A DNA stretch of 44,391 nt from Escherichia phage vB_EcoS_fPoEco01, in sequence record NC_073317.1. The stretch is one strand, 5' to 3'. Both the position numbers and the translations under genes were made by a program. The notes under the pieces are model-generated. The model was not told the origin of the DNA and ran no database searches. It was given only the letters and a program-made list of their open reading frames with translations. Every line of letters begins with the position of its first letter. The stretch's first letter is position 1. Positions 5,019 to 42,120 of this stretch are shown piece after piece.

Positions 5019-5048
5019 AGGCCCCATAATGGGGCCTTAGTTTTATTT
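5019..5048. terminator. bidirectional rho-independent terminator
   Basis: Hairpin AGGCCCC-ataat-GGGGCCT flanked by T-rich tracts on both strands, between convergent genes 4556..5014 (+) and 5043..5564 (-). Confidence 0.55.
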
Positions 5049-5564
5049 AAATCGCGCAGGCATTAACACCATAAAGGCCGTGTTTGAAAATTGTATTTTG
5101 CATCCTCTGGTTTGGTCCTGGAAATCGAAACGAGCAATTTCATTTTTGTATGCCTTAGAAATCTTGTACGCGTCTGCCAAATAGCGCAGAGTGAACCCTA
5201 TACTGTCGACAACACCCGGTGTGATGTGCGCCACGCGTCTCCAGTCAGGAAAGTTTCCTTCTACAACATCTACCGGAAGTGTACATATAAGCGCACGATT
5301 ATCGTCATAGAAAGATACACTGCCGTTGTCGTGGTTTACCTCTGCGTAGTTAAATTTAGAAGGCTCTCTCCCTTTGATGTCTATGAGAGTCCCTTTCTCA
5401 ACGTTGGTCTTCACATTGTCGCAGAACAATCTATGACCGTCCGTAGACACTATCAATCCTTCAGGGTCTATGTAAAAAGCGTTCAAATAGTAGCGAACAT
5501 CATTTTTAGCCCTGCATATTTTCGCCCCTACATACGCAGGGAAAGTAATTACTGTAGTAACCAT
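5043..5564 (-). CDS. hypothetical protein (moron on opposite strand)
   Basis: 173 aa ORF antiparallel to the structural module; own SD AGGAGA, own class I promoter at 5592..5620 and terminator at 5019..5048. Confidence 0.5.
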   Translation of the reverse strand: MVTTVITFPAYVGAKICRAKNDVRYYLNAFYIDPEGLIVSTDGHRLFCDNVKTNVEKGTLIDIKGREPSKFNYAEVNHDNGSVSFYDDNRALICTLPVDVVEGNFPDWRRVAHITPGVVDSIGFTLRYLADAYKISKAYKNEIARFDFQDQTRGCKIQFSNTAFMVLMPARFK

Positions 5565-5591
5565 TTATCATCTCCTGTTTAAGTTAACCGA

Positions 5592-5620
5592 ATAGTACCC
5601 TATTATATTGGGGTGTGCAA
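5592..5620 (-). promoter_or_regulatory. class I sigma70-like promoter (TTGCAC-N17-TACTAT) with embedded AATAG-N4-CTATT palindrome
   Basis: Reverse complement reads TTGCACACCCCAATATAATAGGGTACTATTC; near-identical to elements at 15039..15067, 37339..37367 and 38792..38820. Confidence 0.55.
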
Positions 5621-5686: not shown

Positions 5687-5715
5687 TTGACTTTTCACTG
5701 AAAATATGATAAGCT
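5687..5715 (+). promoter_or_regulatory. sigma70-like promoter (TTGACT-N17-TGnTAAGCT) driving structured RNA element A
   Basis: TTGACT at 5687..5692, extended -10 TGaTAAGCT at 5707..5715; same architecture at 37030..37058. A CTATTCGAATAG palindrome abuts the -35. Confidence 0.5.
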
Positions 5716-5829
5716 CCACCTGAGCTTGTGAAGTATGAACAAGCGACCGCGGCGCGGGCAGGTAACGGAGCGGGACGTAAGTCCTGAGTGTAGTTACGCT
5801 GACGCGTTCGGAAGGGCCATACTCTATTG
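5716..5829 (+). ncRNA. candidate structured RNA element A (promoter-proximal; paired with copy at 37059..37173)
   Basis: About 115 nt highly similar to 37059..37173 with compensatory changes preserving two stems (GUAAC/GUUAC vs GGAAC/GUUCC; GGAC-GUAA-GUCC vs GUGCC-AUUA-GGCAC) and a conserved hairpin GCUUGU...ACAAGC; no ORF. Confidence 0.45.
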
Positions 5830-5895
5830 CTTGTGTAAAAAGTAACTGGTTTACTGAGATTACGCCGTTTCTATGTTTAAATGATAAGGACTAGC

Positions 5896-5919
5896 GCCCC
5901 GCTTTAAGGCGGGGCTTTA
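5896..5919 (+). terminator. rho-independent terminator downstream of RNA element A
   Basis: GCCCCGC-tttaag-GCGGGGC followed by TTTA; lies between RNA element A and the Rz start. Confidence 0.5.
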
Positions 5920-9408: not shown

Positions 9409-10023
9409 ATGGCGAAGACTAAATCTGAGATATTTACCCTTATAGGGCAGGAGTTACCCGACAACACGACGGGGCTTATTACTCTGGCCAAGCTGCGCGG
9501 TGTTCTTACGCAGATGGCTGACTCACCTATTTACGCCACTCCTGGCGTTAAAGAGGTTGAAGTTCTCCGTGCCGCGTCTACCGTAACACAAGCGCCTACC
9601 GCGGTAGATACGGCATTGCAGTTAACTTTCGGTCCCGCGCAGGGTAGCGCATCTGACCCGGTAATGATTAATGTAGCGGGTCTGGTTACGTTCAACACTG
9701 CAGGCAACTACGCCGTTCGCATCAAGTTACAGGCCGGGCGCACTGGGGCAAGCGGCACGTCTATCCTGCTATCGCGCATTCTTCTGAACGGCGCTCAGTA
9801 TGGCTCGCCCGCAGCCACTAAACTGGTAAGCGCCGATACTACAATCCCGATTGAATCCCGTGTGGTTATTAATCCGACGGCAGGCCAGACGTTTTCCGTT
9901 CAGATTATGCGGGATAGTGCCGGAACTAACTACGGCGGCGTATACCCGCAAGTGGCTACGGTAACCGCATGGGGTACCGCCCCGTCGGCACTACTGGTTA
10001 TTTCGAGACTGGAGGCCGCCTGA
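9409..10023 (+). CDS. hypothetical structural protein
   Basis: 204 aa ORF in head-tail joining region; no recognisable motif. Confidence 0.35.
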   Translation: MAKTKSEIFTLIGQELPDNTTGLITLAKLRGVLTQMADSPIYATPGVKEVEVLRAASTVTQAPTAVDTALQLTFGPAQGSASDPVMINVAGLVTFNTAGNYAVRIKLQAGRTGASGTSILLSRILLNGAQYGSPAATKLVSADTTIPIESRVVINPTAGQTFSVQIMRDSAGTNYGGVYPQVATVTAWGTAPSALLVISRLEAA

Positions 10024-13219: not shown

Positions 13220-13450
13220 TTACTCATCAATATTGCTTCGGTACTCCCGTAACTTCTCCAGGCTTTCGATTGCCTCAGCTAAGTCTGTCCAGGTGTCCTT
13301 GTGACCACGTAAACCCATACACAATAGCTTCTTCAATGCGTGCTGTAACGCCGGGTCGCGTATGTCGAAGGCGCGTAGCACGTCGTAAACGTCTACAGTC
13401 ATGGTGCTGCCGTGGGTGTTTGTCATTGTGCGGTTGTATTTATTTGTCAC
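13220..13450 (-). CDS. hypothetical protein (moron operon, 76 aa)
   Basis: Last gene of minus-strand operon 15067 to 13196; no recognisable motif. Confidence 0.4.
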   Translation of the reverse strand: MTNKYNRTMTNTHGSTMTVDVYDVLRAFDIRDPALQHALKKLLCMGLRGHKDTWTDLAEAIESLEKLREYRSNIDE

Positions 13451-13640
13451 GGTTAACTCTCTTAAATCGGGCTATGCCTGACTCGTTAATGCTGCCTATT
13501 TCAAAGAAGCTGCGATATTTAGGCGAATACATTCTTACGTCGCCGTTCTCTAGGGTGACCCCTTCATATACAGCGCCTACTTCGAATCCATTTTTCTCCG
13601 CGTACGGACTCACATCGGTGCATTCATACATATCTTTCAT
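13440..13640 (-). CDS. hypothetical protein (moron operon, 66 aa)
   Basis: Start overlaps stop of upstream gene (translational coupling). Confidence 0.4.
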   Translation of the reverse strand: MKDMYECTDVSPYAEKNGFEVGAVYEGVTLENGDVRMYSPKYRSFFEIGSINESGIARFKRVNRDK

Positions 13641-14767
13641 CCCAGCATCTCCGGTGAAATAGTTAAACGTGCGACCTCGCCATATTCGGCGCTATAAGTA
13701 ATTACATTTGCACTACGGCCCGACATCCATCCGCCGCGCGAGGCGTAGGCGTCTTTAGCCGCTAAGGTGCGGTGTTGCTCAACAATCATGTTACGGCTTT
13801 CTACAATCTTCTGGTGGTGGAGGTGGCCTACGTGGGCGTAGCTGTAAACGCTTTCGCCAAATGCTTTGCGGAACTTGGCAATCATAACCGGTTCGATATC
13901 GTCTAATCGCGCCTTATGCCCGTGGTGAAAGAACAGCGTAGTTTTGCCGTGTTGGACCATCTTGTAAACATCCGGCGACGTATCGACGAACACACGCGGC
14001 TCATTGTCGTACAGCGTACTAAACATCTCAGCTAACCAAATCATTCCGCTTTCGTCGTGGTTCCCTTGCACGATAAGCAAGCGAACAGATTTATGCTTAA
14101 CCAGCGCCATGTCAACAACACGGCGTACCATACGAATCATGTAGCGGACCAGTTTCTGATAACGAGTGTCCGCATCAAGAACATGACCACTCGCTGGCGT
14201 AACCGCATCCAGACTATCGAAGTGCGCGAAGTCACCCAGCAGGTTAATAACCCCAGTTCCTGCATCTGGTGCTTTCTGAAACGCCGCATCGAACCATCGG
14301 GAGAACAGGTCTTCCGCAATCTTCATATCCCAGTCGTCGCCGCTCTCGTCAGCCCAGGCCAGCATACCAAGATGGAAATCAGATACCGTGTACAGATTGA
14401 GTAGTTTATCGTCGCGTTTGGCTCGAGTCGCTTTAACCGGCGCAACTGGCGTAATCTCCGACTTCATTCCTTCGATCACGGCTTTCATTAACTCGACCTG
14501 ACGTTCGGCGTCGGTGTCTGTCTTAACCCATTGCAACTTAGTGTTGCCGAACTCGTCCACCAGTGACGACGTTCCTTTAATTTTGTAGCCGTCCGGGACA
14601 AGATGGCTAACGTCACGACCGTGACCTACGCCTTTCTTCGCCAGCTTCGCTTTACGGATACGAATAACTCGGTCTGAGATGCCGTATTTACGGGATATGT
14701 CGATAATCTTTGTTCCGGCGTTCAATTCTTCCTGTAACTGTTCGTCGGTTATTTTCTTCCGGGCCAT
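13637..14767 (-). CDS. HTH domain + calcineurin-like metallophosphoesterase fusion protein
   Basis: 376 aa; N-terminal HTH-like segment (ITDEQLQEELNAGTKIIDISRKYGISDRVIRIRKAKL); C-terminal metallophosphoesterase motifs in order: SDFHLG (D-x-H), LLGDFAHFD (GD-x-D), QGNHDE (GNHD/E), FFHHGH, HVGHLHH (GH-x-H); SD GAGGAAG. Confidence 0.6.
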   Translation of the reverse strand: MARKKITDEQLQEELNAGTKIIDISRKYGISDRVIRIRKAKLAKKGVGHGRDVSHLVPDGYKIKGTSSLVDEFGNTKLQWVKTDTDAERQVELMKAVIEGMKSEITPVAPVKATRAKRDDKLLNLYTVSDFHLGMLAWADESGDDWDMKIAEDLFSRWFDAAFQKAPDAGTGVINLLGDFAHFDSLDAVTPASGHVLDADTRYQKLVRYMIRMVRRVVDMALVKHKSVRLLIVQGNHDESGMIWLAEMFSTLYDNEPRVFVDTSPDVYKMVQHGKTTLFFHHGHKARLDDIEPVMIAKFRKAFGESVYSYAHVGHLHHQKIVESRNMIVEQHRTLAAKDAYASRGGWMSGRSANVITYSAEYGEVARLTISPEMLG

Positions 14768-14805
14768 GCTTACTTCCTCGTGTTTAGGATTTGTCCTATA
14801 CTAGC

Positions 14806-14997
14806 TCACTTCTCTTTGACATTCGAGTTGCAAGCCCAGATTAAAATAAATACCCACGGCAGCAGAACCCAGCCGAGAAACAGATTAGCCATGAATATCG
14901 CCAGTTTCGCTTTATGTCCGCGCATATGGGCCACTAAAAACGGGATAAAATAAACTAAAACGATAATGATTAAGAAGAACATAGTAATACCTGTCAT
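14806..14997 (-). CDS. Imm-like superinfection immunity membrane protein
   Basis: 63 aa from ATG 14997 (SD AGGAG 7 nt upstream); two TM segments; sequence MFFLIIIVLVYFIPFLVAHMRGHKAKLAIFMANLFLGWVLLPWVFILIWA matches the YF.P...A..R.H....AIF..NLFLGW...W...LIWA pattern of the superinfection-immunity family. Track ORF extends further upstream without a convincing start. Confidence 0.55.
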   Translation of the reverse strand: MTGITMFFLIIIVLVYFIPFLVAHMRGHKAKLAIFMANLFLGWVLLPWVFILIWACNSNVKEK

Positions 14998-15038
14998 GGT
15001 GTAGCTCCTGTTTGAGTTAACATTGTTGGTGTAAGTGA

Positions 15039-15067
15039 ATAGTATCCTATTATGTTGGGGTGCGCAA
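15039..15067 (-). promoter_or_regulatory. class I promoter (TTGCGC-N17-TACTAT) with AATAG-N4-CTATT palindrome, driving moron operon
   Basis: Reverse complement TTGCGCACCCCAACATAATAGGATACTATTCAC, nearly identical to 37339..37367. Confidence 0.55.
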
Positions 15068-26547: not shown

Positions 26548-26832
26548 TTAACTATAATAGCTCGCTATTAGGTCGTCAACCTGTTTAAACGAACCAACGA
26601 CAAAAACATTTGCACCACGTTTGCTCATCCGCTCGTGCTCTCGTAGCTGATGCGGGTCTGGCTTCGTGTTTTCGTCTTTCTTAACCTCGACAAACCAGAC
26701 TATGCCGCCTGGGAGAATTACCAGCAGGTCGGGAGCACCCACTCTATTTTCGTACGACAATTTGCGTACGAGGCCGCCAATGGCCTCGAATCGGTCTTTT
26801 GCGTATTTCTGTACGCGGCCCTCTTTAGTCAT
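26548..26832 (-). CDS. VRR-NUC domain nuclease
   Basis: About 94 aa from ATG 26832; PDLLVILPGGIVWFVEVKK...QL..H..M...G motif arrangement typical of VRR-NUC. Confidence 0.6.
   Translation of the reverse strand: MTKEGRVQKYAKDRFEAIGGLVRKLSYENRVGAPDLLVILPGGIVWFVEVKKDENTKPDPHQLREHERMSKRGANVFVVGSFKQVDDLIASYYS
26551..26579 (-). promoter_or_regulatory. class II promoter (TTGACG-N17-TATAGT) with AATAG-N4-CTATT palindrome
   Basis: Reverse complement TTGACGACCTAATAGCGAGCTATTATAGT; overlaps the last codons of the VRR-NUC gene; same architecture at 31182..31210 and 33800..33829. Confidence 0.5.
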
Positions 26833-27184: not shown

Positions 27185-30100
27185 TTACTTAGCATAGCGC
27201 TTCATCTCCGCACCTTCCGCGACAAGAGGGAAGCCTTCTGCCCACTCAGGCAACGCGCACATTAATTTTTCCAGCTCGGGCACCGTGTAATCCGGCGTAT
27301 CCGGAGTTTCACATACCAGTTCATCGTGTACCGAAAGCACGATTGGATACCCGCCACCCTCAACATTAATCATCGCATATGCGAGTAGATCACGGCACAG
27401 CGCCTGAACAATGTTTTCACAGGCTTTACCGCCGTGGGTGTACAGGGTAGTCCATTGGCGGGTTAACTGGTTTTCACCTTGGTACTTGATTCGCACATTC
27501 GTGTTTACCCGTCCGTCTTCGTCTGTTTCCTTTGTCACGCTAACTCCGATTCCCGGATACGAAAGGATACGGCCCGACGGCAACTCCACGCACAACCACC
27601 AACCAGGAACCTTCCTACCGGATGAATCAAATTCTACTGTTCTCCATATTCGGATAGCGCGCTCGCCATTCCTGCGCAAGTGTGCTCCCGCCCAAAATTC
27701 ACGACCAGGATTACGCACAGCGGCTAAAATTCCGTCTTTAAGGTCGCGCCAGAACGCTACTGTTTCAGGGTGTGACTCACGCCACATACGCTTGATTGCG
27801 TCGCATGTGCGCCACACTTTCTTGTCCAGAATATACGATGGTCGGTCGTCCTTTTCACCAGGATGCGGTGGTCGCTTTGCTTCCTGGATACGCGCCCATT
27901 CATATCCTCTCGCGGTGGCTGACCAGATGTGGTCCGGGAATGTACCGTCCATTGTTTTAGCCATCTCAATAAGGTCGAGGCCTAAGTTTTTGGCGAACGT
28001 AACGAATGCTCCGACGCCTCCCTCGTAGCCGAGGCCCAGTTCGCAGTTATGCGCCACAAGAAAGCCAGAGTCTGAGGCTATAAGAAAACGGTTGCCGTCT
28101 CCCACATCAATCAGGTCGTACACCGGCTCGCAATAGGTTAATTTCCCGTTCAAGTTCAGCAATGCGGGCAACGGCTGCATCATACTTTCGTTGAAGCTCG
28201 GGTATTTGCCGTCTGTTTCGGCAGTTTTCAGAACGGCTGACAAACCGAATGTTTCCAGGTTCGTAGTTACCGTCTGTGTCGATTCTATCCATTTCGAGGT
28301 TCGGGTCATCCCAGCCTTCCAGAGTTTGAACATATCTAAGAAAAGACCTTTTATCAGTCCTCCACTGGTCGAATACCGTGATGCCTCTTGCCCCATAGTT
28401 TTTATAACCCTTATTCCTGGGGCTTGTTGTTCGCGTGATCGCCGCGGACAGCCGGTTGAGTAATCGCGTTCTGTGCACATCATCCGGCATTGCGTCTTCG
28501 TAGCAGAAATACTGTTTACGATATTTTTTTGTTGCTTCAAGGGCGCAGCGGTTGCATTGAGTGGTTTTACCCGCTCTGACATTGTCATAATAGACCCGCC
28601 CCGGCATCTCTCCGCAATCACATTGGACGAGTAGTTGTCTTTGGCCTTGTCGTTTTGGTAACTCGCGCAGGATAACCAGGCGTCCATACCTCTCTCCAGG
28701 GCGAGGCCCATCATATATCTGTTTGAAGCGAGTTGCTTTGCCTGCTTCCAGGAATGCGCCAAGATTTTGTGGTCTTCTGTCATTAGCACCCCGTCCACAT
28801 TTATTACCGGTTTCCACCCCATAAGGTGCGCGCCTTTTGTATTCACCCATTTTTCACCGCTCCATACTTTATCTGTTGATATAACCGCCATAATATCCTT
28901 AAATCCGCCATCGGTCAAAACTTGGGTATGACGGTGAAGGCACGCTTTACCAATCTGGCGCAAGTCTTTACGTTCTTTCTTAATATCGTCTGGGTCCATG
29001 CCGAACATCTTACCCGCGGTTACGCAGTAAATATCAAGGCCAGCACGGAACGTATCGAGTGCGGTTTCCTCCCCGGCCAGCCACGCAAGCCCTCGTCCTT
29101 CAACGTTAGAGTAATCGGCAACAACAAACTTATGCCCCACTTCCGGTATGATGCAGCTACGTACCGTCGATGCCGTTAGCTTGGCTACATCAAAACGGCG
29201 GTGTGCCCGGCCTTTAAGTAACGCTGAAATGCCTTTATCCAGTTCATCATCGTGATAGTACCCGCGCGCCAGGTTCTGTGGTTGGAAGCCTTTACCCGCC
29301 CACCGCAAAGTGCGTTTTGCCCCACCGTACTGTAAACAACCCCGGCGGCGGTCGTCCGATGAGCGGCCCAACAGCAGTGGGTTATATTTCGTTGACGCGG
29401 TGGATGCGGCCCCGAGGCGCATTTCGATAATCGTGCGAGCATCGTCCGGTAAATCATCGTCCGCCAGCAGGTCGTTAAGCGTAGACTTCTGCGCGTTGTG
29501 GATGCGGTGCGCAGGGGCCAGTTCACGAAGAATCGGCAGAAAGTCCTTACCAGTAAGCGAGCCGCCGTATTTGCGTTGGGCTTCCTCCTGTAACTGCGCT
29601 TTGTGTTTCTCCACGGCTTCAATAGCGGCTTCCGCCAGTGCAACGTCAACCTTAAACCCGCGGTCGTTGATTAACTGGTCCAGTTCCAGTACACGGTCTT
29701 CTAACTCAGAGTTACCCCAACGCGGCAGCTTATGGAAGACTTCACGCATTGCAGTGATGTCGCTCACGGCGTACTTGATGAACAGCGCCCACTCGTCCGG
29801 GTGTGTTTCGGCGGTGTAACGGCGGATTTTGTAGTTCTTTGGCGTAGGTTTGGAGAAACGCTTAATCAGCGCCTTGCCGCGTTTATCTTTCGCGTTATCC
29901 GCAGATACGCCCAGCACTTCGCACAATGCATCGAGAGAACCCGGCAGCGCGTGACGAAACGCCCAAATCATCGTATCAATGGTGTTGCTTACAGGAATAT
30001 CAAAGCCCCAGCAGTGTTTCATGATGAGCCTGTCGAACATTGAGCCGTTGTGCCACACCATCTTAATACGACTGTTCGGCTTAACCAGGCGGCGCAGTGC

Positions 30101-30283
30101 GCGGTGCAAATCACCCGGCATGTCGCTGCCGTCGGTGCAATCCCATACCCGCACAGGCTCGTCGTCAAAAGCATATGTGCAGATAAGCACTTCGGTAGTC
30201 GGGTGTTCGGCGTAAGCGTAGGAGCCGACTTTCTTTAAATCTGCTTCGGAGAATGTTTCAAAGTCCAGGTATAAGTAGCTCAT
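27185..30283 (-). CDS. family A DNA polymerase with 3'-5' exonuclease domain, interrupted by an intein in motif B
   Basis: Exo I LDFETFS; motif A VVADYSNVEGRGLAWLAGE; motif B split as RQIGKA / CELGLGYEGGVGAF by the insert; motif C LSVHDELV. ATG 30283 with SD AAGGA preferred over track TTG at 30337. Confidence 0.8.
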   Translation of the reverse strand: MSYLYLDFETFSEADLKKVGSYAYAEHPTTEVLICTYAFDDEPVRVWDCTDGSDMPGDLHRALRRLVKPNSRIKMVWHNGSMFDRLIMKHCWGFDIPVSNTIDTMIWAFRHALPGSLDALCEVLGVSADNAKDKRGKALIKRFSKPTPKNYKIRRYTAETHPDEWALFIKYAVSDITAMREVFHKLPRWGNSELEDRVLELDQLINDRGFKVDVALAEAAIEAVEKHKAQLQEEAQRKYGGSLTGKDFLPILRELAPAHRIHNAQKSTLNDLLADDDLPDDARTIIEMRLGAASTASTKYNPLLLGRSSDDRRRGCLQYGGAKRTLRWAGKGFQPQNLARGYYHDDELDKGISALLKGRAHRRFDVAKLTASTVRSCIIPEVGHKFVVADYSNVEGRGLAWLAGEETALDTFRAGLDIYCVTAGKMFGMDPDDIKKERKDLRQIGKACLHRHTQVLTDGGFKDIMAVISTDKVWSGEKWVNTKGAHLMGWKPVINVDGVLMTEDHKILAHSWKQAKQLASNRYMMGLALERGMDAWLSCASYQNDKAKDNYSSNVIAERCRGGSIMTMSERVKPLNATAAPLKQQKNIVNSISATKTQCRMMCTERDYSTGCPRRSREQQAPGIRVIKTMGQEASRYSTSGGLIKGLFLDMFKLWKAGMTRTSKWIESTQTVTTNLETFGLSAVLKTAETDGKYPSFNESMMQPLPALLNLNGKLTYCEPVYDLIDVGDGNRFLIASDSGFLVAHNCELGLGYEGGVGAFVTFAKNLGLDLIEMAKTMDGTFPDHIWSATARGYEWARIQEAKRPPHPGEKDDRPSYILDKKVWRTCDAIKRMWRESHPETVAFWRDLKDGILAAVRNPGREFWAGAHLRRNGERAIRIWRTVEFDSSGRKVPGWWLCVELPSGRILSYPGIGVSVTKETDEDGRVNTNVRIKYQGENQLTRQWTTLYTHGGKACENIVQALCRDLLAYAMINVEGGGYPIVLSVHDELVCETPDTPDYTVPELEKLMCALPEWAEGFPLVAEGAEMKRYAK
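28046..28942 (-). mobile_element. intein (299 codons) inserted in DNA polymerase motif B
   Basis: Starts with Cys (CLHRHTQVLTDGG...; block B-like GVLMTEDHKIL), ends ...VYDLIDVGDGNRFLIASDSGFLVAHN followed by +1 Cys; removal restores contiguous motif B. Boundaries verified codon by codon against the DNA. Confidence 0.7.
28107..28850 (-). CDS. HNH-like homing endonuclease ORF nested inside the intein in a different reading frame
   Basis: 247 aa ORF offset by 2 nt from the polymerase frame; ATG preceded by GGAG at 9 nt spacing; C-terminal GW...DRIDTDGNYEPGNIRFVSRSENCRN resembles the HNH_3-type core and the two free-standing paralogs. Confidence 0.6.
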   Translation of the reverse strand: MGEYKRRAPYGVETGNKCGRGANDRRPQNLGAFLEAGKATRFKQIYDGPRPGERYGRLVILRELPKRQGQRQLLVQCDCGEMPGRVYYDNVRAGKTTQCNRCALEATKKYRKQYFCYEDAMPDDVHRTRLLNRLSAAITRTTSPRNKGYKNYGARGITVFDQWRTDKRSFLRYVQTLEGWDDPNLEMDRIDTDGNYEPGNIRFVSRSENCRNRRQIPELQRKYDAAVARIAELEREINLLRAGVRPD

Positions 30284-30435
30284 TTCTTTTTCCTTAAATC
30301 CAGTGCCTTCGTTTCGCTGAGTCTTATTTTCATACAATCACGGCAAATCCACACATGCCTGTACCCGGCGCGGTACTCATCCGCGTACCACGGAAGCGGT
30401 TTCATATATCGGTATACGTGCTTACAGAAAAACAT
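30280..30435 (-). CDS. small Cys-rich protein (51 aa, hypothetical)
   Basis: ATG with SD AAGGG; stop overlaps polymerase ATG (ATGA); contains C-x26-C-x2-C plus His; not in track. Confidence 0.3.
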   Translation of the reverse strand: MFFCKHVYRYMKPLPWYADEYRAGYRHVWICRDCMKIRLSETKALDLRKKK

Positions 30436-31127: not shown

Positions 31128-31181
31128 CTTAATTTCTCGCTTTTCAGTTTACTCCTGGAAGCTGCCAGGCCAGTGATTAGA

Positions 31182-31210
31182 ACTATAATAGCTAACTATT
31201 CAGGTGTCAA
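31182..31210 (-). promoter_or_regulatory. class II promoter (TTGACA-N17-TATAGT) with AATAG-N4-CTATT palindrome
   Basis: Reverse complement TTGACACCTGAATAGTTAGCTATTATAGT in the 87-bp gap between 31215..32456 and 30495..31127. Confidence 0.55.
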
Positions 31211-33799: not shown

Positions 33800-33829
33800 A
33801 CTATAATAGTGAACTATTCACGTTGTCAA
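33800..33829 (-). promoter_or_regulatory. class II promoter (TTGACA-N18-TATAGT) with AATAG-N4-CTATT palindrome, divergent from cro-like gene
   Basis: Reverse complement TTGACAACGTGAATAGTTCACTATTATAGT; AATAGTTCACTATT is a perfect 14-bp palindrome. Confidence 0.55.
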
Positions 33830-33893
33830 TGGGCTTTTCTAAAATAATTAATATGGTACTATTCACATATCAACTGACTAAGGAGTAATTGAC

Positions 33894-34126: not shown

Positions 34127-36394
34127 CTATTCCAAATCTTCCTCTGTCACTACCAGCATTTCATTCGGTTCGTATATTGTCTTCGGAATCTTGTTATCCG
34201 TTATCCTGGTGTTAAGTCTGTAACGGCCAGGGATTATCTGGTTGTTTTCGTCAGTCCCTGGCACAAGATACCCGGCCTCAACCATTTTCTTAATCTTCCC
34301 ACGTTCTATGGCTTCTTTGGAGTTGAACGCCTTTGCGTTAGGGTCGGACTGTGCGAGCTTATTCGCCGCGGCTACCGTGATGCCCTCGTTGCCGTTGTAG
34401 GTTCCTTCCGCCAGTTCAAACGCCGCCAGTATCGTGGCCTCAGAACTGTTGACAGCATTCTCTACAGTTTTGCGTACGTTTTCTTTACCTTCCTTTGTCA
34501 GCCCTTCTTCCCGCTCTTTCTCCTCGTCAGTTTTGAATGGCTCGAAACCCCACGGCATCAGCACAAGCGCCTTGTGTGGCTCAGGAAGGTCGAGGTTTAC
34601 GATTGTGCCGTACTCCTCTGTGCTACCGATAAACTCAACCGCACGGTATTCTTTCGGCGGCGGGGCTTCACGGAACTGTACAGACTCCAGCACCATACCA
34701 ACCGTCTTCTGTTGAGGTCCGTGCTTAAATTTAGAGTGGTATACATTTATCTGACGGTCGGTTGCGCGTTCAATTGTCAGTTCCACATCGACGCCCGCAT
34801 ACAGCGCCCCACTACCACGGGCCTTCTTTCCACCCTTCGGGGTATGGTGGACGACGCCTACCGCGGCTTTAGTTGTGTCGCGTACTTCTTTCATGATTGC
34901 GATAACTTTACCCATACCGATTGCCGTTGATGAACTGTTCTCGTCGAACTTATCGATCGTCAGGGCCAGCGTCTGGTTGAGGGTGTCAAACGCAACCATG
35001 CCAATAGGTTCATCCCCCGCAGTTTCACGCATCAACTTAATCAGGTTTTTCAGTTTGCCGACTTCACCCATGTCGATGACATGTACATAATCTTTACCTT
35101 CTTCGCCGTATTTAGCCGCGAGTGCATCGATACGTGTACGTGTAGCCGCACCACCTTCACCATCAATATAGAAGTGATGGCAACGCTGGGTATCCGCCCC
35201 GGCAAACCGGTATCCGGAGGCACTCAGGTACATCATACCCAGTGTATAGAACGATTTATACGTGCCGGATTCCCCGACAATATCCCAGATGCAATCCGAC
35301 GGCATGTACCCTTCAACGACGAAATCAGCCTTTACCGGTTCCGGTAGCTCATCCTCTTCTGAGTCCTCGTCGTCTTCCAGGTCGTCCAGGCTGCATGAAA
35401 CTGATTCACGCGCACCCCAACCGATAGCCTCAGCCACTTTACTGAACGGCAGCCCGGTCGCGTCGCACGCATACTTCCACACCTCTTTTGGCGACATGCC
35501 TTCGGTTGCCGTAATGTCGGTGTCGTGAATCATGGTTACGTTCGGCGCTTCGTACCCTTCACGCGGGAAGCACAGCAGGAAGTCATCCGGACGCGGCGTC
35601 GGGTCGCTGTAGTTTTCTGCGTGTTCTGGCGTAGCTGGCATTTTCAGGCCGCGCGGTGTCATGATACCGCCGTACTCGAATGCCAGTGCTTCAAACGCAT
35701 CAGTAAACGCGGTGCGCAGTTCTTCCGGTATCTGGTAATCCGATGCGCTGCTCACCTCATAATCCGGGATGCCTTCCAGCAGACGGTCAGGGTCAATAAG
35801 GTCATTGCGGCGTGACCAGACGACCTCTGAGTTAACCGGCGGCAGGTACATAGGCTGGGACAGAGTGAACCCGCTGTGGTCGGCGCCCATGCCTTTGAAG
35901 AAGTGCTCCAGCAATCCATGACGGACGCGGATGATGTCACCACCTTCAACCGGACGAGCCAGCGGCATGACGACACGAAAGCGCGGCGACTCATCAATAT
36001 GTGACGCCGTGGTATAGAGGCACATGGCTTTACGGCTGCGCTTAACCCGGCGCACCGCTTCCTGGTACTCTTCCGGCGTTGCGCTGTCGAAGTCCAGATA
36101 CGCCAGCGACGATTTGCCTACAGACGCGTCACAGCGATAAAAGAAGCCTTTACGGGCCTGCTTAAAGTCACCTGTTTCCGGGTCTTTTACGGTGCTGTGT
36201 ATAGAATCGCACGCGGCAGTGATATAACCTGGCGCGGTCTTAGGGTTAATCCCGTCACGAACAGCATCAAGCGGCTGAATTAACTCTTTCAGGTCATCCA
36301 GTGTTGCCGTATGTGTGGTTCTGACGTTTATATCCTTTTTCTCCGCCCGCGCGTTGCGACGGGACCACGAGTAGGATAAAATTACATCGGACAT
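34127..36394 (-). CDS. primase-helicase-like replication protein (N-terminal primase-like region, C-terminal RecA-fold ATPase)
   Basis: 755 aa; Walker A GESGTYKS and Walker B-like IGMVAFD in C-terminal half; SD AAGGAAA. Confidence 0.5.
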   Translation of the reverse strand: MSDVILSYSWSRRNARAEKKDINVRTTHTATLDDLKELIQPLDAVRDGINPKTAPGYITAACDSIHSTVKDPETGDFKQARKGFFYRCDASVGKSSLAYLDFDSATPEEYQEAVRRVKRSRKAMCLYTTASHIDESPRFRVVMPLARPVEGGDIIRVRHGLLEHFFKGMGADHSGFTLSQPMYLPPVNSEVVWSRRNDLIDPDRLLEGIPDYEVSSASDYQIPEELRTAFTDAFEALAFEYGGIMTPRGLKMPATPEHAENYSDPTPRPDDFLLCFPREGYEAPNVTMIHDTDITATEGMSPKEVWKYACDATGLPFSKVAEAIGWGARESVSCSLDDLEDDEDSEEDELPEPVKADFVVEGYMPSDCIWDIVGESGTYKSFYTLGMMYLSASGYRFAGADTQRCHHFYIDGEGGAATRTRIDALAAKYGEEGKDYVHVIDMGEVGKLKNLIKLMRETAGDEPIGMVAFDTLNQTLALTIDKFDENSSSTAIGMGKVIAIMKEVRDTTKAAVGVVHHTPKGGKKARGSGALYAGVDVELTIERATDRQINVYHSKFKHGPQQKTVGMVLESVQFREAPPPKEYRAVEFIGSTEEYGTIVNLDLPEPHKALVLMPWGFEPFKTDEEKEREEGLTKEGKENVRKTVENAVNSSEATILAAFELAEGTYNGNEGITVAAANKLAQSDPNAKAFNSKEAIERGKIKKMVEAGYLVPGTDENNQIIPGRYRLNTRITDNKIPKTIYEPNEMLVVTEEDLE

Positions 36395-36922: not shown

Positions 36923-37029
36923 TTTTATATCTCCTGTTTGTTTAGTGGAACCGAGTATAGGATAGCGGGAATGTAAAAGCAACCAAAACTGAACACAAAG
37001 TTACTAAGATGCAAAAGATGCTACTGGTA

Positions 37030-37058
37030 TTGACTTTTACTTAAAAATATGCTAAGCT
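37030..37058 (+). promoter_or_regulatory. sigma70-like promoter (TTGACT-N17-TGnTAAGCT) driving structured RNA element B
   Basis: TTGACT 37030..37035, TGcTAAGCT 37050..37058; same architecture as 5687..5715. Confidence 0.5.
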
Positions 37059-37173
37059 TCACTGAGCTTGTGAGATATCGCAAGCGACCGCGGAGCGGCA
37101 GGGAACGCAACGCGTGCCATTAGGCACTTGAGTGTAGTTCCGCTGGCGCTTTCGGAAGGGCCAAAGTCTATTG
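37059..37173 (+). ncRNA. candidate structured RNA element B (second copy of element at 5716..5829)
   Basis: See element A; shared core GAGCUUGUGA...CAAGCGACCGCGG...GAGUGUAGUU.CGCUG.CGC.UUCGGAAGGGCCA with compensatory substitutions in two stems. Confidence 0.45.
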
Positions 37174-37338
37174 TTAATCCCGCCTAAATACCCAAGCCAC
37201 TGATAATTAAAAGTTTCTATAGTTGCCGTAAGCAAGGTAGAGAGTACTTCACTCCGCTGGGGTGGGCTAACGCCCACCCACTGCGTTGCGTACTCTTTTA
37301 AGAAACGAAAGAATCACAACGGCAACGTAACTATTTTC

Positions 37339-37367
37339 TTGCACACCCCAACATAATAGGATACTAT
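37339..37367 (+). promoter_or_regulatory. class I promoter (TTGCAC-N17-TACTAT) with AATAG-N4-CTATT palindrome; start of rightward early operon
   Basis: TTGCACACCCCAACATAATAGGATACTATTCAC, 25 nt upstream of the first early ORF. Confidence 0.55.
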
Positions 37368-37392
37368 TCACTTATCGAAACGAGACAGATGA

Positions 37393-38791: not shown

Positions 38792-38820
38792 TTGCACACT
38801 GGGATAGAATAGGCTACTAT
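38792..38820 (+). promoter_or_regulatory. class I promoter (TTGCAC-N17-TACTAT) with AATAG-N4-CTATT palindrome
   Basis: TTGCACACTGGGATAGAATAGGCTACTAT upstream of repeat-containing ORF 38852..39034. Confidence 0.55.
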
Positions 38821-38851
38821 TCATTTACACAAACGAGAGGAGAGGCAGAAT

Positions 38852-40566: not shown

Positions 40567-40856
40567 GCCTCGCAACTGACATCCTGAAACGAAGCGGCCT
40601 TGCGCCGCTGTCGCCGAGAGCTAAAACACAGATATACAAGCGCCGCCGTAACGCGCTGTACCCTGAGATTCAAGCCAGACGCAAAGCAGTCCGCGCCTGC
40701 GGATTCCAGAACGGGAAGGCCGTTAACCTGGGTGAGTTTAAAACACAGGAACGCGCAGCAATCGCTAATCGGTTATTTAATTACTGGAAATCGCTGGGGT
40801 ACGATGATATTCCGACGAAACCGCAGAGACGACAATACATCTGGAGACACAAATAA
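40563..40856 (+). CDS. hypothetical basic protein
   Basis: 97 aa from ATG 40563 (ATGA overlap with upstream stop). Confidence 0.35.
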   Translation: MSLATDILKRSGLAPLSPRAKTQIYKRRRNALYPEIQARRKAVRACGFQNGKAVNLGEFKTQERAAIANRLFNYWKSLGYDDIPTKPQRRQYIWRHK

Positions 40857-42035: not shown

Positions 42036-42069
42036 ATCCCGGCCCTGACCCAGCCGGGATTTTTTTTTT
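42036..42069 (+). terminator. rho-independent terminator after lysis cassette
   Basis: ATCCCGGC-cctgaccca-GCCGGGAT followed by a run of nine T. Confidence 0.65.
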
Positions 42070-42091
42070 ATCTATTTTCTGCAATGACTAG

Positions 42092-42120
42092 TTGACTATT
42101 AACATCGACCCTATTATATT
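42092..42120 (+). promoter_or_regulatory. sigma70-like promoter (TTGACT-N17-TATATT)
   Basis: Immediately after terminator and upstream of conserved leader CGAGAGGAGAGGCAGA and ATG 42153. Confidence 0.45.

Follow-up and report, generated by a model that had tools for sequence, protein, structure and literature searches.

The DNA analyzed here (the window, 44,391 bp) is the complete genome of a Kagunavirus (subfamily Guernseyvirinae), in which a 14-bp palindrome, AATAG-N4-CTATT, recurs in front of blocks of genes. The initial annotation had placed this palindrome in seven promoters of two sequence classes and proposed that it overlaps the -10 region and serves as the operator of a single dimeric regulator encoded by the phage. 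This raises the question of what the palindrome does at these promoters and which protein, if any, would bind it.

Genome and gene content

Over 450 records of related phages of E. coli and Salmonella were found, and the Escherichia phage vB_EcoS_fFiEco02 (fFiEco02) is a close relative with 96-98% identity (about 97%) to the window. Its annotation comprises 77 genes, with structural and lysis genes on the + strand and replication genes on the - strand, and includes a 71-aa ‘transcriptional repressor’ as well as an HTH protein of 60 aa; none of the 77 genes encodes an integrase, a second repressor of the cI type or an RNA polymerase. Based on this annotated relative, all large ORFs were assigned to functions other than RNA polymerase. 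As judged from its gene content, the phage is virulent and has no lysogeny module.

The DNA polymerase ORF (27185-30337, - strand) encodes 1050 aa, compared to about 1030 aa in the Salmonella phage SETP3 and 733 aa in fFiEco02. Compared to the otherwise 97%-identical fFiEco02, the gene of the window thus seems to carry an insertion, either an intein or a fused mobile element.

Seven perfect palindromes coincide with promoter-like sites

Exactly seven perfect matches to AATAG-N4-CTATT were found in the window, whereas shuffled sequences yielded 0.07 on average and 1 at most, and all of them (7/7) fall in promoter-like sites upstream of co-oriented gene blocks (Table 1). These are the seven promoters listed previously, so the palindrome is indeed present in each. 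Extraction of the sequences in promoter orientation reproduced both the hexamer coordinates and the two classes, except that the -35 at 15062-15067, given as TTGCAC, reads TTGCGC. The + strand at 33805 reads AATAGTGAACTATT; the AATAGTTCACTATT reported earlier is the sequence of the - strand, the appropriate one for that promoter. Allowing up to one mismatch, the number of matches rises to 11, with 1.2 expected. One such near-palindrome, AATATGGTACTATT, lies in front of the gene for a Cro-like protein and was missing from the earlier list.

A further one-mismatch palindrome, TATAGTATGCTATT (2776-2789, + strand), is located directly after a terminator (2756-2771) and before a head-morphogenesis gene, and it is unclear whether it is a weak operator/promoter or a chance match.

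Table 1. Features of the window discussed in the text; promoters and the genes that they drive are predicted.
Feature	Position	Strand	Sequence elements	Palindrome	Genes or context
Class I promoter	5591..5620	-	TTGCAC (5615-5620), N17, TACTAT (5592-5597)	5591-5604	Isolated reverse-strand sliding-clamp-like gene 5043-5564
Class I promoter	15038..15067	-	TTGCGC (15062-15067), N17, TACTAT (15039-15044)	15038-15051	Reverse-strand unit 13220-14988 (small Sie-like ORF, metallophosphoesterase, two small ORFs)
Class II promoter	26551..26579	-	TTGACG-N17-TATAGT	26556-26569, in spacer	64-aa ORF and helicase
Class II promoter	31182..31210	-	TTGACA-N17-TATAGT	31187-31200, in spacer	DUF2815 (gp2.5-like SSB) gene and DNA polymerase
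Class II promoter	33800..33829	-	TTGACA-N18-TATAGT	33805-33818, perfect (O1)	170-aa ORF through nuclease operon; divergent from Cro-like gene
Class I promoter	37339..37368	+	TTGCAC-N17-TACTAT	37355-37368	First block of small early genes
Class I promoter	38792..38821	+	TTGCAC-N17-TACTAT	38808-38821	Second block of small genes
O2	33850..33863	+	-10 TACTAT (33857-33862), preceded by TGG; no good -35	One mismatch	Cro-like gene's own promoter
Cro-like HTH_3 protein, 71 aa	33894..34109	+			Favoured candidate binder
HTH_17 (AlpA/excisionase-like) protein, 60 aa	36740..36922	-			First gene of primase operon
Palindrome-free promoter	5687	+	TTGACT-N17-TAAGCT		Structured RNA unit
Palindrome-free promoter	37030	+	TTGACT-N17-TAAGCT		Structured RNA unit
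Palindrome-free promoter	36954-36982	-	TTGCTT-N17-TATACT		Primase operon
Promoter-like site without palindrome	42092-42120	+	TTGACT-N17-TATATT		Upstream of nin-like small genes
Structured RNA unit	5687-5915	+	RNA core 5722-5841; terminator-like hairpin 5896-5915		Just upstream of spanin/scaffold/capsid genes
Structured RNA unit	37030-37300	+	RNA core 37064-37185; terminator-like hairpin about 37240-37300		Upstream of early genes

The two classes place the palindrome differently. Class I has the form TTGC(A/G)C-N17-TACTAT, the palindrome beginning 10 nt after the -35 and its positions 8-13 forming the -10. Class II has the form TTGAC(A/G)-N17/18-TATAGT; here, the palindrome occupies the spacer from 4-5 nt after the -35 onwards and contributes just its last T to TATAGT. 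The overlap with the -10 proposed earlier therefore holds for class I and not for class II. Counted from the hexamers, class I palindromes would extend from about -19 to -6 and those of class II from about -25 to -12, and a third register, 7 nt after the -35, occurs at one SETP3 promoter. While the class I copies are alike beyond the hexamers, the two classes have only the palindrome in common.

A consensus scan returned the class II sites as the top three matches of their genome half (11, 11 and 10 of 12 positions). The class I sites score 7/12 (TTGCAC 3/6, TACTAT 4/6), which is below the threshold of the scan, and their promoter status therefore rests on position: each precedes the first gene of a co-oriented block by 30-45 nt, and two are predicted to drive reverse-strand units inserted in the structural module. 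The seven sites are best explained as host sigma70-type promoters, near-consensus in class II and weaker in class I. As proposed earlier, the palindrome marks replication units, early units and the reverse-strand ‘moron’ units. Inspection of the opposite strand revealed no usable -35, so that a divergent promoter at the palindrome was rejected, and an RNA-level role was discarded because the palindrome lies upstream of the predicted transcription start.

Conservation points to a discrete element in the promoters

The motif search over the genome and related phages yielded near-invariant arms in the relatives as well. Here, we used 44 related viral contigs fetched around the DUF2815 gene, most of which contain 3-6 perfect palindromes in the 20 kb covered. 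Orthologues of five promoters were aligned and duplicates removed; perfect arms are kept in 145/156 distinct sequences. Mean column entropy ranges between 0.00 and 0.21 bits in the arms, while the central 4 bp reach 0.32-0.99 bits at the five perfect-site promoters and 0.16 bits at the promoter of the Cro-like gene (Pcro). Each promoter shows 4-10 different palindrome centres, and the spacer bases between the -35 and the palindrome are variable, too. The left arm of class II, located in the spacer, is as conserved as the hexamers, and sigma70 polymerase makes no base-specific contact in the spacer. The 26551..26579 promoter is embedded in coding sequence, within the final ten codons of the VRR-NUC gene (which ends in ...L I A S Y Y S, with the stop codon at 26548-26550), and at this gene end the residues encoded by the palindrome centre change in relatives while the arms are fixed.

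Beyond the genus, the palindrome recurs at the corresponding promoters of the Salmonella phage SETP3 (Jerseyvirus), with five perfect copies and about three near-sites, and the Enterobacter phage phiEap-2 has 10 sites with up to one mismatch compared to 1 expected. The Cornellviruses St162 and VSiA contain 0-1 palindromes.

Because the arms are near-invariant, the centre is variable and three registers are used, the palindrome appears to be a discrete element under its own selection, separate from the RNA polymerase contacts. Its location inside the polymerase footprint, together with the variable register, therefore fits the operator of a steric repressor and fits an activator site poorly. 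At the level of sequence comparison, the operator part of the earlier proposal is thus well supported.

Between the 31187 promoter and the DUF2815 start (31127), the leader contains a conserved hairpin, CCTGG-cagctt-CCAGG (31154-31169, - strand), which in relatives reads CCGGG...CCCGG, a compensatory change on both sides. This hairpin is also found in St162, phiEap-2 and SETP3 and could serve the gp2.5-like ssDNA-binding protein as a translational operator.

Promoter-like sites without the palindrome and structured RNA units

Several other promoter-like sites of the same genome (5687, 36954-36982, 37030 and 42092) do not carry the palindrome. The site at 42092-42120 has a terminator ahead of it (~42040-42075) and carries CCCTATTATATT, which is common to the class I promoters, but only one palindrome arm; the same arrangement is seen in SETP3 near 40840.

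The promoters at 5687 and 37030 belong to two paralogous units, each composed of a palindrome-free promoter, a conserved, structured RNA of ~120 nt and a terminator-like hairpin. The RNA cores are 79% identical, and 22 base pairs of the structure are supported by eleven variants (4 with compensatory changes). A covariance model also matches SETP3 at 5765-5881 (E = 2e-7), whereas Rfam gave nothing relevant for the whole window at gathering thresholds or for 36990-37340 at E values up to 5. The units may represent sRNAs or put-like antitermination leaders and may be more novel than the palindrome itself.

A Cro-like protein as the favoured candidate regulator

Three candidate regulators had been named: the Cro-like HTH protein, the AlpA-like HTH protein and an HTH-phosphoesterase. 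We favour the first, a homologue of 434 Cro with a near-site of its own and with a recognition helix that shows no variation wherever the site shows none. The phosphoesterase was dismissed, as its N-terminus gave only a sub-threshold match to HTH_Tnp_1 (E = 0.13) and no significant HTH match, and as Cornellviruses, which lack the palindromes, have the protein at 78-83% identity.

The Cro-like protein matches Pfam HTH_3 (E = 2.3e-12), and its best solved relative is 434 Cro, which also has 71 aa (E = 5.4e-7, residues 6-68). It is 41% identical to the Cro of HK446 (imm434), which is 434 Cro itself and is encoded beside 14-bp operators of the ACAAG-N4 type with the same geometry as the palindrome in the window. 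The gene is divergent from the 33805 promoter, and a conserved site (9/10) covers the -10 of its own promoter. This site, O2, corresponds to the class I core without TTGCAC. The T that constitutes its mismatch is conserved in 28/29 distinct relatives; it creates TGG-TACTAT, a putative extended -10 motif, which would explain its conservation.

The recognition helix reads SQGAINQ throughout Kagunavirus, with one G-to-S variant, and SQSLITH, without variation, in Jerseyvirus. In Jerseyvirus, the base flanking the half-site is always T (84/84 half-sites), while Kagunavirus has G and T with similar frequency; this correlation between flank and helix represents one split between two clades only. As a point against the Cro-like protein, its versions in the two genera are only ~51% identical and differ at four helix positions, yet the operator arms are identical. 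The phage phiEap-2 has kept the Cro-like gene and has no HTH_17 gene.

St162 and VSiA also encode a Cro-like protein (41-43% identity), whose recognition helix resembles that of Jerseyvirus. Given the 0-1 palindromes in these genomes, the protein can therefore exist without a multi-copy site, and this is the strongest argument against it as the binder. A search for an alternative Cornellvirus operator revealed only GAGTATACTC, a perfect 10-bp palindrome covering the -10 of the Cro-like promoter (9741-9750 in St162, 34316-34325 in VSiA) and found nowhere else in the two genomes; it may be a purely local operator in a lineage without the multi-copy site. Searching a large protein database with the Cro-like protein returned only close relatives (78-99% identity, on Kagunavirus-sized contigs), and these matches included no independent lineage for the co-occurrence of protein and site.

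Overall, the assignment of the regulator to the Cro-like protein is plausible from the homology and the comparative pattern, and we regard the chances that a dimer of this 71-aa protein binds the palindrome as roughly balanced.

Alternative explanations

A host (Enterobacteriaceae) transcription factor or another phage protein could bind the palindrome, with the Cro-like protein acting only locally. The Cornellviruses would suit this reading, as they keep the Cro-like protein without the multi-copy site and have GAGTATACTC on the Cro promoter as the only local candidate, and a factor shared by the two hosts would be consistent with the identity of the arms between phages of E. coli and of Salmonella. 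However, Cornellviruses infect Salmonella, as Jerseyviruses do, yet do not have the site, and the comparison of 34 small proteins revealed no other HTH protein with a matching distribution. To our knowledge, there is also no host factor with the specificity of this palindrome; the nearest host operator that we are aware of, that of TrpR (ACTAG-N4-CTAGT), differs at the critical CTAG core. We therefore consider such a binder unlikely, though worth keeping in mind.

The 60-aa HTH_17 protein (the AlpA-like candidate) could likewise bind the palindrome and repress or modulate the seven promoters. Its gene is restricted to Kagunavirus and Jerseyvirus (445 phage records), the two genera with perfect palindromes, and is absent from the palindrome-less Cornellviruses; the Kagunavirus and Jerseyvirus proteins share ~80% identity, in parallel with the identity of the arms, and the promoter of its own operon (36954-36982) has no palindrome. 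A published time-course lists an HTH gene as ‘early’, and judging from gene order this may be the HTH_17 gene. On the other hand, the recognition helix occurs in three versions within Kagunavirus (TRQTINNW, TRRTLNNW and S[T/P]MTLNRW), while the palindromes in the same contigs are unchanged, and phiEap-2 has ten near-sites but no detectable HTH_17 homologue. Furthermore, the usual targets of this protein family are direct repeats, bound by monomers, and not 14-bp palindromes. This makes the HTH_17 protein an improbable regulator of the seven promoters.

Next to the identity of the binder, the direction of control has to be considered. Since the class I sites reach only 7/12 against the sigma70 consensus and, with hexamers at 3/6 and 4/6, fall below the scan threshold, it is conceivable that the palindrome is an activator site, at least for these weak promoters. 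Nevertheless, its predicted position is inside the polymerase footprint (class I, -19 to -6; class II, -25 to -12), and it occurs in three registers, which fits steric repression rather than activation from one face of the helix. Class II is near-consensus with spacers of 17-18 bp, whereas a MerR-type operator is a dyad in an over-long spacer of 19-20 bp. Activation thus appears quite improbable.

Finally, it is very hard to believe that the palindrome has no separate function and merely belongs to copied promoter cassettes or to phage RNA polymerase promoters: PHIRE-based papers do report the same repeat as ‘phage RNAP promoters’ and the class I copies share more sequence than their hexamers, but fFiEco02 has no RNA polymerase among its 77 annotated genes, the palindrome alone is common to the two classes, its arms are fixed while centre and flanks drift within each orthologous promoter, and other promoter-like sites in the same genome lack it.

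Comparison with known systems and published annotations

The system most similar to the one proposed here is that of phage 434, whose 71-aa Cro is detectably homologous to the Cro-like protein of the window (E = 5e-7). The 434 OR/OL operators, ACAA(G/A)-N4-(C/T)TTGT, have twofold symmetry over 14 bp, with conservation in the outer 4-5 bp and variation in the centre, as is the case here; in both phages, the operators overlap the core promoter and the regulator gene adjoins a divergent operator-bearing promoter. The arm sequence, AATAG, differs from that of 434. In the alignment, Gln32 here corresponds to Gln28 of 434, which we take to contact A1, a base kept in the palindrome of the window, while Gly33 replaces Gln29, whose presumed contacts, base pairs 2-3, are different here. 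Gln37 corresponds to Gln33 of the 434 repressor, which we assume to contact base pair 4, and this base pair is retained. These contact assignments follow the published 434 structures and, mapped onto the palindrome, may serve as a lead.

In contrast to 434, the phage analyzed here is virulent and has no cI partner, integrase or immunity region, and it carries single operators at seven dispersed promoters instead of tandem triplets at two promoters. As there is no cI and no integrase and the operators are single and dispersed, this is not a lambdoid immunity switch. P1 C1 and the ‘stoperators’ of mycobacteriophage L5 gp71 are examples of one regulator with many short sites scattered at or near the promoters of unrelated operons; these sites are asymmetric and serve prophage maintenance in temperate phages. 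The similarity to the present case is one of layout only: the window has a palindromic site and lacks a lysogeny module. Most likely, we are dealing with an ordinary kind of switch, a putative Cro-type repressor with a dispersed regulon.

The repeat itself has already been published. The paper on the Kagunavirus fBC-Eco01 lists seven PHIRE ‘phage RNA polymerase promoters’ with the consensus tgAATAGTa-ccTATTat-T, including the copy at the Cro promoter, and the paper on the Kagunavirus Golestan also reports seven PHIRE promoters; dyad symmetry, sigma70 hexamers and a link to an HTH gene are not mentioned in either. The fBC-Eco01 list contains one site at a class II position (PP4, 27124) and none at the positions of 31187 and 33805. 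The label of a phage polymerase promoter fails because no RNA polymerase is encoded. The operator reading is the new part: we found no paper treating the motif as an operator in the literature on these phages, no 5'-end or transcription-start data for this phage group, and no operator or transcription-start study in the literature on MB78, SETP3, K1ind, Jerseyvirinae and Jerseyvirus transcriptomes. The one RNA-seq time-course published for a Kagunavirus covers 5 to 120 min in three broad classes, which is too coarse to test the model described below.

Proposed regulation and its significance

The number, placement and conservation of the motif, the homology of the protein and the comparative correlations are results of the analysis; binding, repression as its direction, and timing are inferred in the following sequence of events. 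Each promoter would carry one 14-bp twofold-symmetric operator, (T/G)AATAG-N4-CTATT(A/C), between -25 and -6, where a bound protein would occlude RNA polymerase. Upon phage entry, the host polymerase would fire the seven promoters and the Cro promoter. As the Cro-like dimer accumulates, it would occupy the seven high-affinity operators and reduce transcription of the replication, early and insert units; once its concentration has risen further, it would also turn down its own promoter via the weaker site. The palindrome-free promoters (5687, 36954-36982, 37030 and 42092) would escape this control and keep firing. Taken as a whole, this explanation, sigma70-type promoters with single operators and a Cro-like repressor, could in our opinion turn out right or wrong with similar probability.

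A more far-reaching picture, which we put forward as speculation and rather doubt in its entirety, would have this virulent phage run its whole temporal programme on the host polymerase, with the Cro-like protein as a global shut-off timer at eight promoters in three registers, the palindrome-free promoters accounting for the rest, and the two structured RNAs acting on the late genes as put-like antitermination elements or as regulatory sRNAs.

The general principles of phage regulation are not changed by these findings, and their novelty is modest, correcting a published label. Kagunaviruses and Jerseyviruses are, however, widely isolated for phage therapy and food safety, and the ‘transcriptional repressor’ gene of these phages is frequently marked as potentially indicating lysogeny. 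If it is indeed the regulator of a lytic-cycle shut-off acting through a 14-bp operator at seven or eight promoters, the role of this gene would be clarified and the ‘phage RNA polymerase promoter’ label, which is spreading in genome papers, would be corrected. It would also provide those engineering this group of phages with a compact repressor/operator pair and a promoter map.
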